Shown: positions 54,855 through 61,859 of the stretch, one piece after another
Position numbering within the stretch: position 1 is the stretch's first letter
Layout: every line of letters begins with the position of its first letter
NCBI GenBank assembly: GCA_025999155.1
Contig: AP026679.1
Location: forward strand, 85,776 to 149,775
Length of the DNA: 64,000 nucleotides
Reading direction: 5' to 3'
From: Candidatus Dojkabacteria bacterium
Lineage (GTDB): Bacteria; Patescibacteriota; Dojkabacteria; JAOAGR01
The notes under the pieces: model-generated
Databases searched by the model: none
What the model was told of the DNA's origin: nothing
The model's input: only the letters and a program-made list of their open reading frames with translations
Program-made: the position numbers and the translations under genes

Positions 54855-54942
54855 TGGTGACGGGAATGGGACTCGAACCCATAAGTCTGTAATAGACACT
54901 AGTACCTGAAACTAGCGCGTCTACCAGTTCCGCCATCCCGCC
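54855..54942 (-). tRNA. tRNA-Leu, anticodon CAG.
   Basis: Reverse complement GGCGGGATGGCGGAACTGGTAGACGCGCTAGTTTCAGGTACTAGTGTCTATTACAGACTTATGGGTTCGAGTCCCATTCCCGTCACCA. Long variable arm. Loop TTCAGGT. Confidence 0.85.
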
Positions 54943-55035
54943 AATAGAAAACGATAGCTAAAATATTATATCAGAAAACAACACAGGAAGTATTTTTAAT
55001 CTTACCTGCTATCAAAATTGAGAAAATACCAAGAA

Positions 55036-55111
55036 TGGTGATGCGTACTGGACTCGAACCAGTGACAGGCTGCTTAAGAGGCAGCTGCTCTACCAACTGA
55101 GCTAACGCACC
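55036..55111 (-). tRNA. tRNA-Lys, anticodon CTT.
   Basis: Reverse complement GGTGCGTTAGCTCAGTTGGTAGAGCAGCTGCCTCTTAAGCAGCCTGTCACTGGTTCGAGTCCAGTACGCATCACCA. Loop CTCTTAA. Confidence 0.85.
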
Positions 55112-55573: not shown

Positions 55574-56647
55574 TCAATTTTTACTCAGGATACTTTTGAT
55601 AGAAAATGCGTAATATTTCAGATACAGATCATATGTTGTATATGCAATCACCATCAAAATCGGACCAAAAATCAAACCTAAAAAGCCAAAAACACTTATA
55701 CCAGCAATAATACCTAAAAGAGTTATTGCTTCAGGTAGCTTAGCCTCTTGTTCGACCAATTTAGGTCTTAATATATTATCTATATTGGATATAACTATAA
55801 CAAAAGTTGCAACTATTAAAACTGCACCAAATACATTACCGGTGATAGCAAGAACAAAAGCAATAGGGAACAAGAGAAACCCCACACCTACTAAAGGAAT
55901 TACAGCCAAAACTATAGCTAGAAAAGTAAAAAATAACGTATATGGGACACCGGCAATCCACATCACAACACCAGCAACAACTCCTTGTACAAACGCTATG
56001 GTAAAAGTACCATTAATCATAGATCTTGCCATTGCTACTATACGATTTAGATACATCATAGTCATATCGTCAGGTAAGGGGCTTATTTTTCTTATATTGT
56101 AAACTAATTTTTTCTGTGTTGAAAAAAGATATGTAGTTAATACAATGTATAAAATCGTATCAGTAATGAGTTCTGGAAGAGCTGTACCAACACTACCAAT
56201 TTTACTGAGTAAAAAACCTAAAACACTTCTAGCTACATTATATAGATTCGCATTAATATCTTCGATAGTTATCTTGTAATTAATAGAATAAGAAGCAATC
56301 AATTGGTTTAATTCTTCTACTTTAGTATTAACAATCTGACCTAATGAAGATGTTTCAAATTCAAACCGATTCAAATCTGAGACAATCTGCGTGATTTGAT
56401 AGGTAGTCAAAGTACCCACTAGAATCAAAGGTGAAATAAGAGCAAAAATTACTACTATTAGCGTCAGCCAGGACGCTAGATTTGTATTACCTTTCAGCTT
56501 ATAAAGAAACCATTTATAAACGGGGTTAAAAGCTAGAACTGTAAGCACAGCAAGTGAAATTACATGAACAAATTTACTTATAAACCAGGCAATGACTAAG
56601 GTTACAAGTATCAACAATATAAAAAAAACTTTCTTTTGATTACCCAT
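55574..56647 (-). CDS. AI-2E-family (PerM/YdiK/TqsA-like, UPF0118) transporter.
   Basis: 8 TM helices. About 350 aa. ISNIDNILRPKLV C-terminal motif typical of AI-2E. Confidence 0.65.
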   Translation of the reverse strand: MGNQKKVFFILLILVTLVIAWFISKFVHVISLAVLTVLAFNPVYKWFLYKLKGNTNLASWLTLIVVIFALISPLILVGTLTTYQITQIVSDLNRFEFETSSLGQIVNTKVEELNQLIASYSINYKITIEDINANLYNVARSVLGFLLSKIGSVGTALPELITDTILYIVLTTYLFSTQKKLVYNIRKISPLPDDMTMMYLNRIVAMARSMINGTFTIAFVQGVVAGVVMWIAGVPYTLFFTFLAIVLAVIPLVGVGFLLFPIAFVLAITGNVFGAVLIVATFVIVISNIDNILRPKLVEQEAKLPEAITLLGIIAGISVFGFLGLIFGPILMVIAYTTYDLYLKYYAFSIKSILSKN

Positions 56648-56752: not shown

Positions 56753-58306
56753 TTAACTAAACATTGCTTTACTCCGTCTATCCCTATGATAAGTGAGACC
56801 AAATCTATGAGCCTCATCACGAATCCTTTGTAATAGAAATAAAGTGTCTTTATGGTCATCATATGTATGACTTGTTTTTTGCCCAGGTACAAAGATCTCT
56901 TCATGCTTTTTAGCAAGGGCACAAACAAACAAATGGTCTAATTTTAAGCTATGTAACACATCCACAGCTACACTTAGCTGCCCTTTACCTCCATCAACTA
57001 TTATTAAATCAGGCGTTGATGAAAATGATTCATCTTCTTGAGATTTTAATTCAGATATATTCGAATTCGTTTTTAAACTATCATTAGTAATCCCTAATTT
57101 ATTGAGGATTTGGGCGTTATGTTCATCAAGATTAAATAATTTATTCTTAGGCTTGAGATAAGTAAACCTACGTAAAAGCATTTCACGCATCATTGCAAAA
57201 TCATCAGGTGTATTTTTTACATTAATTTTGAATTTTCTATAGTGGCTTTTTTTTGGTATTCCTCCTTCAAAAACAACCATAGATCCTACAGGATTAGTTC
57301 CTGAAATATTCGATATATCAAAACACTCAATTCTAAATTTATCCAAATATTCTGACCGTAATTGCTTAATTTCATCTAAAGATTTGCCAAATAACTTTGG
57401 AGCATTCTTATAGAGTAATCTGTATTGTCCGACTTTTAAATCCTTAATAAGAAATTCAAGACCCTTCATAATTCTTTGATACATCAAGCGCATTACGTCA
57501 TCTTCATCATCACCATAGCCTATCATTAATTTTTGAGAAACATATGTGAGTTCATCGATTTGTTGCTTTACTTTCGCGGCTTTCTCAAATTCCAGATTAT
57601 GAGCATAAGATTTCATTTTTTGAGTTAATTCATGCACTAGTGTTTTCTTCTTATTCTGTAAAAATTTCTTTATTGCGTTGATATTCTCTAAATACTCCTG
57701 TTGCGATATTAGACCTTCACAAGGACCCCCACACCGTCCTATATGATAAAAAGTACAAAGCCGCGACCTGACAATTTCCCCATTTTTACGCCTTTCAGCT
57801 CTTTTTTTGTTATCTTCATCTGTAATTTGATAACTACATGTGCGATATGGAAATTCTTTCCTTAAAAAATTTAAAACTTGATCTCTAACCTGAGCATTTG
57901 GAAATGGTCCAAAGTAGATGGCATTCTTATCTTTTGTATTACGAGTACGATAGATGATTGGATAGGGATCTTTTGTGATTTTAATCCAGGCATAAGATTT
58001 GTCATCTTTGAGTAAGACATTGTATTTTGGTTTATATTTTTTTATGAGAGAAGCTTCTAAAATCAAAGCTTCTACCTCGGATTCGACCGTATAAGTTTCT
58101 ACTGTTACTGCTTGATCTATCATTAACTGCAATCTGGCTGTCAAGTCCTTGTAATTTTGAAAATATGAACTGACTCTTTTCCGTAAATTCTTTGCTTTTC
58201 CAACATACAAAACTATTCCATCTTTATCTTTAAAGATATAACTGCCTGGTAATGTAGGCAGTGTGGGTAATAATGCTTTAACAGGATGATCTTTCACAAA
58301 GCTCAT
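56753..58306 (-). CDS. uvrC: Excinuclease ABC subunit C (short form lacking the C-terminal HhH pair).
   Basis: GIY-YIG PGSYIFKDKDGIVLYVGKAKNLRKRVSSYF. Cys cluster RCGGPCEG. Endonuclease-V-like FDISNISGTNPVGSMVVFEGG. Confidence 0.85.
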   Translation of the reverse strand: MSFVKDHPVKALLPTLPTLPGSYIFKDKDGIVLYVGKAKNLRKRVSSYFQNYKDLTARLQLMIDQAVTVETYTVESEVEALILEASLIKKYKPKYNVLLKDDKSYAWIKITKDPYPIIYRTRNTKDKNAIYFGPFPNAQVRDQVLNFLRKEFPYRTCSYQITDEDNKKRAERRKNGEIVRSRLCTFYHIGRCGGPCEGLISQQEYLENINAIKKFLQNKKKTLVHELTQKMKSYAHNLEFEKAAKVKQQIDELTYVSQKLMIGYGDDEDDVMRLMYQRIMKGLEFLIKDLKVGQYRLLYKNAPKLFGKSLDEIKQLRSEYLDKFRIECFDISNISGTNPVGSMVVFEGGIPKKSHYRKFKINVKNTPDDFAMMREMLLRRFTYLKPKNKLFNLDEHNAQILNKLGITNDSLKTNSNISELKSQEDESFSSTPDLIIVDGGKGQLSVAVDVLHSLKLDHLFVCALAKKHEEIFVPGQKTSHTYDDHKDTLFLLQRIRDEAHRFGLTYHRDRRSKAMFS

Positions 58307-58428
58307 TATACAAAAAAGTTTAGTTATTTATCTAAAATGTATCTGAAATATTGGCCTTGTCATTGAATCTCAAGATAGTCCGACATTAAAATGGAAATCT
58401 AAAATATTTTATCCTAAAATGCTCTGTA

Positions 58429-58854
58429 ATGAGTAATTACGACGGGCATCGACAACACTACCGCTTTCATGTATGGTTGATGCAAGCACAATATGATTTA
58501 CAGGCTGCGGAAATTAGTCGTAAAAACGGATTTTATGAGTGGTCTTGTTTTCAAGCTGGACAGGCAGCAGAGAAAGCATTAAAAGCAGTTATTGTATATC
58601 ACGGGAAATCGGCTCCTAAAGTCCACAAACTAGGTGTACTTATCGGTATGATCAAGAATATAGATGCTAGATTTCGTGGTATTCGTCTAGACATTACTGA
58701 GCTGCAGTCTTATACTTTTAGTGCAAGGTACCCATTTTTAATACCTGGCAATTTAGAAACACCACATGAATATATAGATGCAGAGGACGCAAAAATATGT
58801 ATAAATCAAGCGAAAATCATATTAAACTTAATCAAAGAGATATTGAACGTTTAG
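58429..58854 (+). CDS. HEPN-domain protein (NTase-associated HEPN, PF05168-like).
   Basis: WLMQAQYDLQAAEISRKNGFYEWSCFQAGQAAEKALKAVIVYHGKSAPKVHKLGVLIGMI is the canonical HEPN helix pair with the H-x-L motif. Confidence 0.75.
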   Translation: MSNYDGHRQHYRFHVWLMQAQYDLQAAEISRKNGFYEWSCFQAGQAAEKALKAVIVYHGKSAPKVHKLGVLIGMIKNIDARFRGIRLDITELQSYTFSARYPFLIPGNLETPHEYIDAEDAKICINQAKIILNLIKEILNV

Positions 58855-59258
58855 TCGAAGCTGTCGATATAATCAAAGCCTGGGCTAGGGACAATCTTTG
58901 TGAAATAGTGCTTTTTGGCAGTTATGCCCGTGGAGAACAAAAAAAATACTCATCCATTGATATACTCGTCATTCTCACGGAATCACAAGAAGATTTTATC
59001 CAACGTAAAACTGCTCTGGAGAAAATTTTAAATTCTTCAGGAGCCATTCCATTAATCGACACACTTGTTTACACAGAGGATGAAATCAAGGATTTAATAA
59101 AAAAGAAAGAGAGCTTTATTGTATCTGTATTGGAAGAAGGATGTGTGATATGTAATGGCAAGGATAATATAGAGATTCAAAAGATTAACACATTGCCACA
59201 CATTATCCATTCAAAATATTTTGACCTCCTACCGAGCTTAAATGAAGTTGACGTGTAG
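58797..59258 (+). CDS. Minimal nucleotidyltransferase (MNT, Pol-beta superfamily) partner of the HEPN protein. 58-nt overlap with the upstream gene as annotated.
   Basis: IVLFGSYARGEQKKYSSIDILVIL: GS-x9-13-DxD NTase signature. Confidence 0.75.
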   Translation: MYKSSENHIKLNQRDIERLVEAVDIIKAWARDNLCEIVLFGSYARGEQKKYSSIDILVILTESQEDFIQRKTALEKILNSSGAIPLIDTLVYTEDEIKDLIKKKESFIVSVLEEGCVICNGKDNIEIQKINTLPHIIHSKYFDLLPSLNEVDV

Positions 59259-59287: not shown

Positions 59288-59980
59288 ATGGAGAACCTAA
59301 AAAACATAAAAAACTATTTGAAACATCCTGCGGTAATTACTCTCATTGCATTGTTAGCATCGGTTGCTGCAATATTCGGTATTATCCAGATACTTCCCGA
59401 AAACAATACATCACAGGCAGAAAGAGTAGAGAGATTTTGGGGTAATCCTGAAGCTAGTGTTGTGATAGAGTATTATGGTGATTTAGAATGCCCCGCTTGT
59501 AAAGCTTTTTGGTTTGATACAGAAAAACGGCTTAAAGAAACATATTCCGATAAGATAAAGTTCATATTTAAACATTTGCCTTTACCGATACACGCTAGAG
59601 CAGATGATGCAGCAGAGGCGGCTGAAGCAGCTGGAGCCCAAGGCAAGTTTTTTGAATATGTAGAAATTTTATATTCTAAACAATCAAGCGAAGAAGTACA
59701 AAAATGGAATGTAAATACCTTTGTAGAATATGCTAAAGAAGTAGGAATAAGTGATATTGAGAAATTCAAAAAAGAACTTGAAGATAAATATTACAGAAAC
59801 GTAATAAATGAATATAAAAGGGAAGCAAAAGAAAAGAACATCATGGCAACGCCAACCGTATATGTTAATGGCAAACAGATAACTAATCCAACTTTTGAAA
59901 ATATAGAGAAGGCAATTTTGGAATCTTTGGGAAATACTGTAACTCCATCACCATCTGAAGAGCCACAGTCACAAAACTAG
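59288..59980 (+). CDS. DsbA/thioredoxin-fold thiol:disulfide oxidoreductase, membrane-anchored.
   Basis: N-terminal TM. CPACKAFW active-site CxxC. Helical insertion then thioredoxin C-terminal half (ATPTVYVNG). Confidence 0.75.
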   Translation: MENLKNIKNYLKHPAVITLIALLASVAAIFGIIQILPENNTSQAERVERFWGNPEASVVIEYYGDLECPACKAFWFDTEKRLKETYSDKIKFIFKHLPLPIHARADDAAEAAEAAGAQGKFFEYVEILYSKQSSEEVQKWNVNTFVEYAKEVGISDIEKFKKELEDKYYRNVINEYKREAKEKNIMATPTVYVNGKQITNPTFENIEKAILESLGNTVTPSPSEEPQSQN

Positions 59981-60049: not shown

Positions 60050-61057
60050 ATGAACATTTTTATAACAGGAGGAGCAGGCTACATAGGCTCACATACCGTG
60101 CTTGAAGCCTTACGAAGAAACCATCGAGTATTTGTATTTGACTCTTTGGAAAGAGGTTATCGTGAGGCTCTTGACCGAGTACAAACCTTAGCAAATCGAC
60201 AAATTATTTTTATACAAGGTGATCTACGAAATAGAGAAGATATTGCTGATGCATTGAAGGATACCAAACCGGAGATAGTCATACATTTTGCTGCATATAA
60301 ATCAGTAAGTGAAGGTGAAAAAGAACCGGAAAAGTACTATAGGAGCAATGTTGAGGCTACTGTAATACTTATGGAAGAAATGATAAAACAGAATATACGT
60401 AAAATCATATTCTCTTCGAGTGCCGCAACGTACGGTATCCTCGATCGAATGCCTATTACAGAACAATCACCAACAAACCCTATTAGCGTCTATGGTAAAA
60501 CAAAGCTTGAGATGGAGAAGGTAATCAACAGTTTTACGAAAGATTATGGATTAGAAGCGGTGGCGTTTCGATACTTTAATGCAGTAGGAGCAGATGAAAG
60601 CGGAGAAATCGGGGAAGATCCTCGACACACTACTAACCTTATACCCCTAGTAATGCACACCCTAGTAGGTAAAAGAGAAAAAGTATATCTATTCGGGGAT
60701 AAATTTGATACAGCCGATGGTACACAAGAAAGAGATTACATACATGTATCTGACCTAGCAACAGCACATCTAGATGCAGCTGAAAAAAGTTTTAATCGAG
60801 GAGAAATGATGATTTTGAATCTGTCTACGGGCCAGAAAACTAGTTGTCTGGAAATCTTCAGGTTAGCGCAGGAAATTAGCGGAAAAACATTAAATTACGA
60901 AGTAGTTGGACCTCGTCAAGGCGATCCAGTAACCCTATATGCTGATAATTCAAAAGCTAAATATATTCTTGGATGGAAACCTCGAAGGGACATAAAAAAA
61001 TCAATACAGGATCAATGGCGATGGACTTCGAAATATCCCAATGGATATAGTTACTAA
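60050..61057 (+). CDS. galE: UDP-glucose 4-epimerase (SDR, GalE-like).
   Basis: MNIFITGGAGYIGSHTV Rossmann. YGKTKLEMEKV catalytic YxxxK. 335 aa. Confidence 0.8.
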   Translation: MNIFITGGAGYIGSHTVLEALRRNHRVFVFDSLERGYREALDRVQTLANRQIIFIQGDLRNREDIADALKDTKPEIVIHFAAYKSVSEGEKEPEKYYRSNVEATVILMEEMIKQNIRKIIFSSSAATYGILDRMPITEQSPTNPISVYGKTKLEMEKVINSFTKDYGLEAVAFRYFNAVGADESGEIGEDPRHTTNLIPLVMHTLVGKREKVYLFGDKFDTADGTQERDYIHVSDLATAHLDAAEKSFNRGEMMILNLSTGQKTSCLEIFRLAQEISGKTLNYEVVGPRQGDPVTLYADNSKAKYILGWKPRRDIKKSIQDQWRWTSKYPNGYSY

Positions 61058-61859
61058 AGTATTGACGTCTATGTTGGCAAGTCTAAAAAAGCGAAATACT
61101 ATTGACCTGATCTGGATATTGTGGCGTACGGATTTTAAACTCAAATATAATGATTCAATATTGGGTTTTATATGGGTGCTTATAAAACCTTTTAGTATTT
61201 TTCTTATTTTATATCTGGTTTTAACGAATATATTCCCGTTTCAAGAGGAACATTTCGTCATCTACCTACTGATAGGAAATGTATTTATCTCTTTTTGGAC
61301 GGAGGGTACCAACTTAGGATTAGACTCGCTATTAAGTAGAGCTGGATTAATAACAAAAGTCAACTTTCCAAGGTACACTGTACTTATATCATCGACTTCG
61401 ATAGCTCTTGTTAATTTTCTGATTAACACAATTATTGTTTTTATATTCGTATTCGTTAATGGGCTAAGACCAAGCTTAATGGATGTATTTTGGTACTTTC
61501 TATGTTCAGGAATTCTTTATATGCTTATTATTACAGTTTCTATGTTTCTGAGTATACTGTATGTTAGATTTCGCGACCTCAAACAAATATGGGAGCTATT
61601 TAATCAATTACTTTTCTGGATGACGCCTGTGTTTTATTCATATGAAGCACTTGCATCAAAAAATGAAATCTTTGGATTGATTCTATATTGGCTAAATCCC
61701 GTCTCAGTACTGTTAATTAGCGCCCGTGAAGCAATCATGGAAAACAATATAACTTTACAGCTAAATGTATTAGCTGTTATGTCCTTATTTTTAGTACTAT
61801 TTTATATTGGTTATAATTTCTATAAGAAACAAATAAAGAAAATCGCGGAGTATTTTTAA
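61041..61859 (+). CDS. ABC-2-type polysaccharide/teichoic-acid exporter permease (Wzm/TagG-like).
   Basis: 6 TM. ABC-2 family pattern. Precedes the Wzt/TagH-like ATPase. Confidence 0.7.
   Translation: MDIVTKVLTSMLASLKKRNTIDLIWILWRTDFKLKYNDSILGFIWVLIKPFSIFLILYLVLTNIFPFQEEHFVIYLLIGNVFISFWTEGTNLGLDSLLSRAGLITKVNFPRYTVLISSTSIALVNFLINTIIVFIFVFVNGLRPSLMDVFWYFLCSGILYMLIITVSMFLSILYVRFRDLKQIWELFNQLLFWMTPVFYSYEALASKNEIFGLILYWLNPVSVLLISAREAIMENNITLQLNVLAVMSLFLVLFYIGYNFYKKQIKKIAEYF

Follow-up and report, generated by a model that had tools for sequence, protein, structure and literature searches.

Here we present an analysis of a two-gene locus in a 64,000-nt stretch of DNA from Candidatus Dojkabacteria bacterium (GenBank assembly GCA_025999155.1, contig AP026679.1, positions 85,776 to 149,775 of the forward strand), referred to below as the window, in whose numbering all coordinates are given. 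The locus consists of a gene for a HEPN-domain protein followed by an overlapping gene for a minimal nucleotidyltransferase-fold (MNT) protein, a pair that a preliminary description of the sequence had interpreted as a HepT/MntA-like toxin-antitoxin (TA) module in inverted gene order. The two open reading frames (ORFs), of 141 and 153 aa, and their 58-nt overlap were confirmed by ORF analysis and Pfam matches. Its domain content, gene order, overlap and motif pattern identify the pair as a class II HEPN/MNT module; that it works as a HepT/MntA toxin-antitoxin or in defence is improbable. The principal features of the locus are as follows.

58429-58854, + strand: HEPN gene of the class II / PF05168 type, 141 aa (Pfam 94.9 bits)
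58797-59258, + strand: MNT gene, 153 aa (PF01909 41.3 bits, PF18765 35.4 bits)
58797-58854, + strand: dual-coding overlap of 58 nt, where the final 19 HEPN codons and their stop coincide with MNT codons 1-19
58783-58787, + strand: Shine-Dalgarno-like GAGGA, 9 nt 5' of the MNT ATG, within HEPN codons E119-D120
58797-58799, + strand: MNT start ATG, its A ending HEPN codon 123 and its TG beginning the Cys124 codon
58798-58800, + strand: HEPN Cys124 codon TGT, overlapping the MNT ATG

Primary analysis assigned the HEPN protein to PF05168 (E=4.8e-27, 94.9 bits against a cut-off of 22), which was its sole significant Pfam family, a match to AbiV being sub-threshold. Profile matches were also obtained to the solved proteins TM0613 (1o3u), ST0689 (1wol) and TT1696 (1ufb), at E=1e-21 to 1e-23, and to the HEPN domain of sacsin at E=1e-11. 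Sequence searches gave no match of the HEPN protein to DUF86/HepT, nor to the chain partners in PDB 9xbd, the entry that holds the best sequence match of the MNT protein. The MNT protein itself matched PF01909 (NTP_transf_2; E=2.1e-10, 41.3 bits, cut-off 21) and PF18765 (E=1.3e-8, 35.4 bits). Among the NCBIfam models, the MntA_antitoxin equivalog scored 31.2 bits, below its cut-off of 60, and the ANT models scored 15-26 bits, with cut-offs of at least 340.

Neighbouring PF05168 and PF01909 genes were named class II HEPN/MNT by Yao et al. 2020 (PMC7641770), who described this class as having no RX4HXY motif while retaining a conserved tyrosine, and to whom no biochemical work on it was known; no later biochemical study was found in the literature we searched. 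The distinction between class I and class II has been restated in a 2024 paper. PF05168 was listed as "HEPN-T" by Anantharaman et al. 2013 (PMC3710099), who recorded fusions of this family to MNT and proposed that a conserved His elsewhere in the protein may pair with the motif Arg as an alternative active site. The pair in the window has the defining content of class II, a PF05168 HEPN beside a PF01909 minimal nucleotidyltransferase (NTase). Its nearest named relatives are from Candidatus Dojkabacteria (WS6, Patescibacteria/Candidate Phyla Radiation [CPR]), the HEPN protein being 99% identical on the NCBI contig of GCA_008362845.1, and both proteins are conserved across more than 40 species. 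We found no report on HEPN in Dojkabacteria or the CPR in the literature searched.

To place the locus among its relatives, one genome per GTDB species was scanned, yielding 80 related loci; only loci that matched the search pattern were retrieved, eight of them missed by phmmer and recovered through a motif search. In all 80, an overlapping MNT ORF comes after HEPN or the two are joined as one HEPN-MNT ORF. The HEPN-first order, with long overlaps, holds in all 36 relatives outside the CPR, and the RefSeq/PGAP annotations of the pairs on Thermomicrobium and Thermus megaplasmids likewise put HEPN before the NTase, with overlaps of 44 and 53 nt. HEPN followed by MNT is thus the standard class II layout, with the MNT start deep in the 3' end of HEPN; this layout is our own observation and not a published criterion for the class. 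Nor is the overlap an annotation artefact, since the ATG at 58797 is the sole ATG, GTG or TTG start ahead of the NTase core in the window's clade, and a later MNT start that would abolish the overlap was rejected for the same reason.

The translation signals of MNT, its start and the Shine-Dalgarno-like motif, are nested in the 3' codons of HEPN. The layout in which MNT starts 58 nt before the end of HEPN (-58) is common to every close relative and to Methanoculleus; spirochaetes, Brocadia, Omnitrophota and others offer a -59 start, read in the other frame. A purine-rich GA(G/A)GA stands at the equivalent position in relatives, as GGAGGA in Methanoculleus, and we infer that GAGGA acts as the MNT ribosome-binding site. 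HEPN residue 124 was found to follow the start codon: all 16 split CPR forms and all three from Methanoculleus, each with the -58 ATG, have Cys, and the 33 other relatives all have Ala. The 29 fused forms, where an internal start is unneeded, divide into 12 with Cys, 15 with Ala, one with Ser and one with Leu. This tracking argues that the internal MNT start is in use and that the fused genes derive from a split -58 ancestor, and on the codon comparison Cys124 is an amino acid imposed by the embedded start. About half of the fused genes have regained the class-typical Ala at this position.

The substitution pattern in the overlap is dominated by the HEPN frame, and constraint on the first 19 MNT residues is weak. 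The third-position mismatch in HEPN is 0.476 inside the overlap versus 0.579 outside, a small effect measured over only 18 codons. Programmed -1 frameshifting or transcriptional slippage within the overlap, yielding one HEPN-MNT fusion, would suit the position of MNT in the -1 frame relative to HEPN, and the product would about match the fused orthologues in length. However, no X XXY YYZ heptamer was found in the HEPN frame and no slippery one is conserved in relatives, runs of A are just 4-5 nt long, and what is conserved instead is the GAGGA-type motif together with the ATG, with Cys124 tracking the latter. Furthermore, the HEPN C-terminus and the MNT N-terminal helix stand one after the other in the fused orthologues, which are about 19 codons longer, so that their junction is not of the frameshift type. 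The absence of an in-frame or conserved slippery heptamer and the conservation of the start signals led us to reject this explanation, which we consider highly improbable.

The residues discussed below have the following coordinates.

58624-58626, + strand: HEPN H66 codon, class-wide residue
58726-58728, + strand: HEPN R100 codon, class-wide residue
58729-58731, + strand: HEPN Y101 codon, class-wide residue
58765-58767, + strand: HEPN H113 codon, lineage-specific residue
58771-58773, + strand: HEPN Y115 codon, tyrosine present
58917-58922, + strand: MNT G41-S42 codons, NTase motif
58953-58955, + strand: MNT S53 codon, occupying the position of the first catalytic Asp
58959-58961, + strand: MNT D55 codon, second Asp of the motif
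59058-59060, + strand: MNT D88 codon, third carboxylate

The HEPN protein has no Rx4-6H nuclease motif, as the preliminary description had suggested: the spacing from R100 to H113 (RYPFLIPGNLETPH) is 12 residues, and no other R-x4-6-H was found at the motif position. The missing motif is a class II trait, since the class is described without RX4HXY (Yao et al. 2020, PMC7641770). The earlier designation of the pair as a possible non-canonical variant stands relative to HepT/MntA, but both traits on which it was based, the HEPN-first order and the missing motif, are norms of class II and not peculiarities of this locus. In keeping with the class, a conserved tyrosine and an alternative conserved His are present. 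Over the whole set of relatives H66, R100, Y101, E48 and K49 are conserved, and K52 is invariant inside the CPR-type clade. This clade departs from all others at three class-conserved positions: the class Arg at position 22 is Tyr, Phe or His (Y22 in the window), the class Asn or Asp at 103 is Phe, and position 113, variable in the class, is an invariant His. Y115 aligns with a tyrosine conserved in most other class II relatives and is likely the acceptor tyrosine of the class. Tyr is kept at this position in the window's clade and is replaced by Phe in the other split CPR forms and by Leu or Ile in the fused forms; its loss broadly tracks the change in the NTase site.

That change concerns the first catalytic Asp. 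The MNT motif had been described as GS...DxD, but reads G41-S42-x10-S53-I54-D55, and in HMMER alignments to PDB 9xbd_E and HI0073 it is S53 that lies opposite the first Asp and D55 opposite the second. The canonical GS-x10/11-DxD is present in 36/36 relatives outside the CPR-type clade and in its basal locus, L051; at every other CPR-type locus the first Asp is Ser, Thr or Ala, or Glu in three (L015-17). The second Asp and the third carboxylate (D88 in the window) are kept across the clade, and GS has become GR or GG in about half of the fused forms. In an exhaustive MNT search over 1.8 billion representative proteins only 567 reached E<=0.001; DxD is found in 129 of the 150 best representatives, and the exceptions include the top five matches and eight of the top 11. 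The C-terminal tail of MNT, residues ~120-153, is confined to the window's clade. AMPylation of the HEPN protein by its neighbour, as proposed in the preliminary description, needs DxD, and the S53-x-D55 found here speaks against it.

In most related genomes the pair is one polypeptide. A single HEPN-MNT fusion protein was found in 29 of 43 species of the Patescibacteria/Dojkabacteria clade in the scan; the fused proteins match both Pfam HEPN and Polbeta and form at least 312 clusters at 90% identity, in which all names given are from Dojkabacteria. Phylogenetically, the CPR sequences form one clade, within which the 29 fused genes are one nested subclade and the split forms, including the window's clade, are basal. 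The fused proteins place the HEPN C-terminal helix, a linker of ~20 aa and the MNT N-terminal helix in tandem. An AlphaFold2 model of one fused orthologue, P0056, built from an 82-sequence alignment (mean pLDDT 88, pTM 0.62), shows two well-folded halves, HEPN being helical and the NTase alpha/beta. In Foldseek searches against the PDB the HEPN half matched 1wol, 1ufb and sacsin (3o10, TM 0.76) and the NTase half matched MntA, 2rff and 8xeo, the two halves matching separately; no solved chain with the HEPN-then-MNT domain order was found. The preliminary description had named, as an outcome that would count against a TA module, that the homologs prove to be domains of a single housekeeping enzyme in related genomes, and this is largely what the fused forms suggest.

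The fusion also bears on whether the two proteins are subunits of one nucleotidyltransferase, with HEPN as the substrate- or nucleotide-binding subunit, in the manner of kanamycin/ANT enzymes, and a small molecule, a protein or an RNA end as target. In favour, the two are fused into a single polypeptide in relatives, HEPN has historically been proposed as the substrate-binding partner of MNT, the pocket residues (Gly, Thr/Ser-x-Asp, Glu/Asp) are invariant in the fused family, and the MNT half is weakly like ANT(9)/AadA in both sequence and structure. Nevertheless, the two-metal site is incomplete, and many fused forms have GR or GG in place of GS. ANT enzymes have the opposite domain order, and no two-domain structural match was found; moreover, the strongly conserved half is HEPN and not the NTase. 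We consider this explanation unlikely.

The genomic setting of the pair indicates vertical, housekeeping-like inheritance, based on conserved synteny, correlated distances to neighbouring housekeeping genes, UvrC-like HEPN identity, flank-like GC content and the absence of viral relatives. Most Dojkabacteria loci have the order recA, a family we designate fam3, HEPN::MNT, rny, amidase, parB; other Dojkabacteria loci have rpoD and a sortase gene upstream, and the window's clade has uvrC, then HEPN, MNT, in some members AhpC, DsbA and the two ABC genes (ABC2, ABC). HEPN pairwise distances correlate with those of the adjacent RNase Y (rny; r=0.81, 26 loci) and of RecA (r=0.62, 22 loci). Within the window's clade HEPN is 65-74% identical and UvrC 66-72%, with 44-54% for MNT and 43-47% for the DsbA-like protein. 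The GC content of the pair is the same as that of its flanks, and there is one locus per genome in the CPR clade in all but one case. No relatives of the pair were found among IMG/VR viral contigs or INPHARED phage genomes, and its plasmid relatives (Bacillus, Thermus, Sphingomonadaceae and others) are all below 40% identity. PADLOC gave no match for HEPN and, for MNT, only generic matches to the candidate families PDC-S09 and PDC-M05A, so that neither a single defence model covering both proteins nor a defence-island context was found. The phage-defence or persistence role suggested earlier is thus unsupported: the neighbourhoods are those of housekeeping genes.

The gene fam3 (L018:4783-5484, + strand, in one such locus) encodes a protein of ~200-230 aa and occurs in 24 of 44 Dojkabacteria loci, always between recA and HEPN::MNT in the same orientation. 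Its N-terminus resembles a winged helix, and its C-terminal part bears an MNT-like motif, GSHDIDLVLVG, with an intact DxD. The protein gave no match to Pfam, PDB or NCBIfam, and it is not present in the window; it could be an active NTase or regulator partner of HEPN in the genomes that carry it. In Methanoculleus and Ignisphaera, at the archaeal loci L052-L054 and L056, HEPN and MNT each occur a second time within a few kb, the clustered multi-copy pattern described for class II, whereas Dojkabacteria have a single locus in all but one genome.

The explanations that treat the pair as a working TA module can now be weighed. If it were type VII-like, the HEPN protein would be an RNase toxin and MNT would AMPylate it on Y115 or Y101, as MntA does HepT. 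The MNT fold, the GS, D55 and D88 residues, the weak MntA_antitoxin match, the invariant Y101 and the Y115 kept in the window's clade are all compatible with this, as are the GSx10DxD retained by class II MNTs elsewhere and the conserved Tyr of the literature. The first metal-binding Asp is a Ser, however, no Rx4-6H or RX4HXY is present, the HEPN belongs to PF05168 and not DUF86, and the MntA model reaches 31 bits against a cut-off of 60. The vertical, syntenic, single-locus pattern (one exception) without a mobile or defence context, and the fusion of both proteins with loss of Y115 in sister lineages, weigh further against a type VII-like module, which we judge improbable. In a reversed assignment, the NTase would act as toxin (a MenT-like tRNA nucleotidyltransferase, for instance) and the upstream HEPN as its antitoxin. 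The HEPN-first order would fit the antitoxin-first convention, and the original 2009 prediction for MNT-HEPN pairs would too, yet the incomplete NTase active site and the non-mobile, vertical and fused pattern make this very improbable. That said, the claim of the preliminary description that the pair is evolutionarily related to TA modules holds.

Comparison with known systems sharpens the placement. With the class II proteins of known structure (TT1696 1ufb, ST0689 1wol, TM0613 1o3u; COG2250/COG1708) the pair shares the HEPN family, the absence of RX4HXY, H66, R100 and Y101, and the position of HEPN upstream of an overlapping MNT. It differs in the MNT motif, DxD there and S-x-D here, and in HEPN, where Arg, Asn/Asp and a variable residue there correspond to Y22, F103 and H113 here. 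Class II elsewhere is patchy, multi-copy, thermophile-enriched and plasmid-borne, whereas here it is vertical and syntenic in one CPR class, at one locus per genome with a single exception; the class II GSX10DXD motif and the mobile, TA-like distribution are thus the two class II traits not found in this clade.

The likeness to HepT/MntA lies in the combination of a HEPN-superfamily protein with a minimal Pol-beta-fold NTase, the MNT half matching MntA structurally. HepT, however, belongs to DUF86 (PF01934) or PF08780 and has RX4HXY, in contrast to PF05168 and the R100-H113 spacing of 12; MntA lies upstream of HepT, whereas MNT (58797-59258) lies downstream of HEPN (58429-58854); MntA carries GSX10DXD, whereas MNT has G41-S42-x10-S53-I-D55; and the HepT/MntA system is mobile, which this pair is not. 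In every HepT/MntA defining feature examined in sequence (family, RNase motif, GSX10DXD, order) the pair differs. The FhepTA system of Shewanella prophages (SO_1440; PMC13000451) also has split and fused forms among close relatives, but there MNT precedes HEPN, the RphixxxH is active, the protein self-oligoAMPylates and the system is carried on mobile elements, as against HEPN before MNT, class II membership, an incomplete NTase site and chromosomal, vertical inheritance here. KNTase/ANT(4'), ANT(9) and AadA likewise combine an NTase with a HEPN-related helical domain, as one enzyme, and are matched weakly (MNT 26 bits, cut-off 340); their domain order is opposite and their catalytic carboxylates are intact. 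Foldseek found no match to an ANT/KNTase-type two-domain fold, and the NTase site here is incomplete. Finally, the HEPN domain of sacsin (3o10) shares the PF05168 fold, but sacsin is a eukaryotic multidomain chaperone without an MNT partner.

On balance, and with only moderate confidence, we favour the interpretation that the locus encodes a lineage-fixed, or "domesticated", class II HEPN/MNT module, an obligate complex in which HEPN is the working part and the NTase partner does not AMPylate, serving a constitutive role. By Rosetta-stone logic from the HEPN-MNT fusion, the two proteins would form an obligate 1:1 complex. The HEPN would be directed at RNA or a nucleotide, using the class II pair H66 and R100 together with the lineage-specific H113, and its NTase-fold partner would have lost the MntA-type Mg2+-dependent AMPylation and would, as a bound subunit, regulate, scaffold or sense a ligand. 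The role of the module would be constitutive and cellular, as opposed to addiction or phage defence.

Several points weigh against the domesticated-module interpretation. The roles given to H66, R100, H113 and the NTase pocket are guesses. Four residues are invariant in the fused family (the Gly, the Thr standing where the first Asp would be, the Asp after it and the third-carboxylate Glu), on the strength of which the NTase pocket looks remodelled but still used, not merely decayed; and the window's clade, which keeps GS and Y115, may retain weak or altered nucleotidylation. Also, domesticated modules and fixed selfish modules can look alike, and the counts for Dojkabacteria cover only pattern-matching loci.

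A more far-reaching version, which we hold as a possible but doubtful reading, is that a selfish class II module was captured at the root of Dojkabacteria and turned into a core enzyme, perhaps an essential one, for RNA processing or nucleotide sensing, its pocket rebuilt around Ser/Thr-x-Asp for new chemistry or as a pure sensor, and its halves later fused. If true, this would be the first toxin-antitoxin-derived housekeeping gene to define a whole CPR class, and would provide a tractable entry to class II HEPN biochemistry.

Class II HEPN/MNT modules number in the thousands, and this lineage is a natural experiment, in which split and fused forms of the module are found together with a stepwise loss of the NTase site and the putative acceptor tyrosine. 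These losses occur under housekeeping-like selection in a ~1-Mb genome, a pattern that argues for a cellular function of HEPN independent of control by AMPylation. It also advises caution against automatic annotation of neighbouring HEPN and NTase genes as HepT/MntA toxin-antitoxin or defence systems. In addition, the start codon placed in a conserved Cys codon shows cleanly how a gene overlap can dictate an amino acid. The class II kind and its lack of RX4HXY are already known; as far as the literature searched shows, four observations are new: the module is fixed across the lineage, it forms a series from split to fused, its catalytic Asp and acceptor Tyr are lost stepwise, and a Cys is imposed by the start codon.

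In the window the pair is bordered by uvrC and a DsbA-like gene, as the preliminary description had it, and its other neighbours are epimerase, ABC exporter and glycosyltransferase genes. The flanking features are listed here.

56753-58306, - strand: uvrC, divergent neighbour on the 5' side of HEPN
58307-58428, strand undefined: uvrC/HEPN intergenic region between the divergent genes, the presumed promoter
59288-59980, + strand: Thioredoxin_4/DSBA (DsbA-like) gene, starting 29 nt past MNT

A scan of the uvrC/HEPN intergenic region gave only weak sigma-70-like matches, no more than shuffled sequence would lead one to expect. On the + strand no terminator-like site was found in the 29 nt between the MNT stop and the DsbA-like gene, making it plausible that HEPN-MNT is co-transcribed with the downstream genes. 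The pair heads a string of redox and envelope genes (AhpC, DsbA-like, epimerase and ABC-2 exporter); the AhpC/TSA peroxiredoxin gene lies between MNT and the DsbA-like gene in relatives of the window's clade (L004:6849-7313, L005:6841-7308) and is not present in the window. The ORFs of the epimerase (60050-61057) and ABC-2 permease (61041-61859) genes overlap by 17 nt (61041-61057). Genes for tRNA-Leu(CAG) and tRNA-Lys(CTT) lie at 54855-55111 on the - strand, ~3.3 kb upstream of the pair, and the interval between them and the HEPN-MNT locus showed nothing suggestive of an integration site or a mobile element. Two neighbouring genes vary in length: the AI-2E transporter (55574-56647) is 357 aa in the window and 270 aa in GCA_008362845.1 (L001) and one Logan contig, and the epimerase is 335 aa in the window and 307 aa in the same two sources. 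Another Logan contig has both full-length or nearly so, and these differences are probably assembly frameshifts or strain variants.

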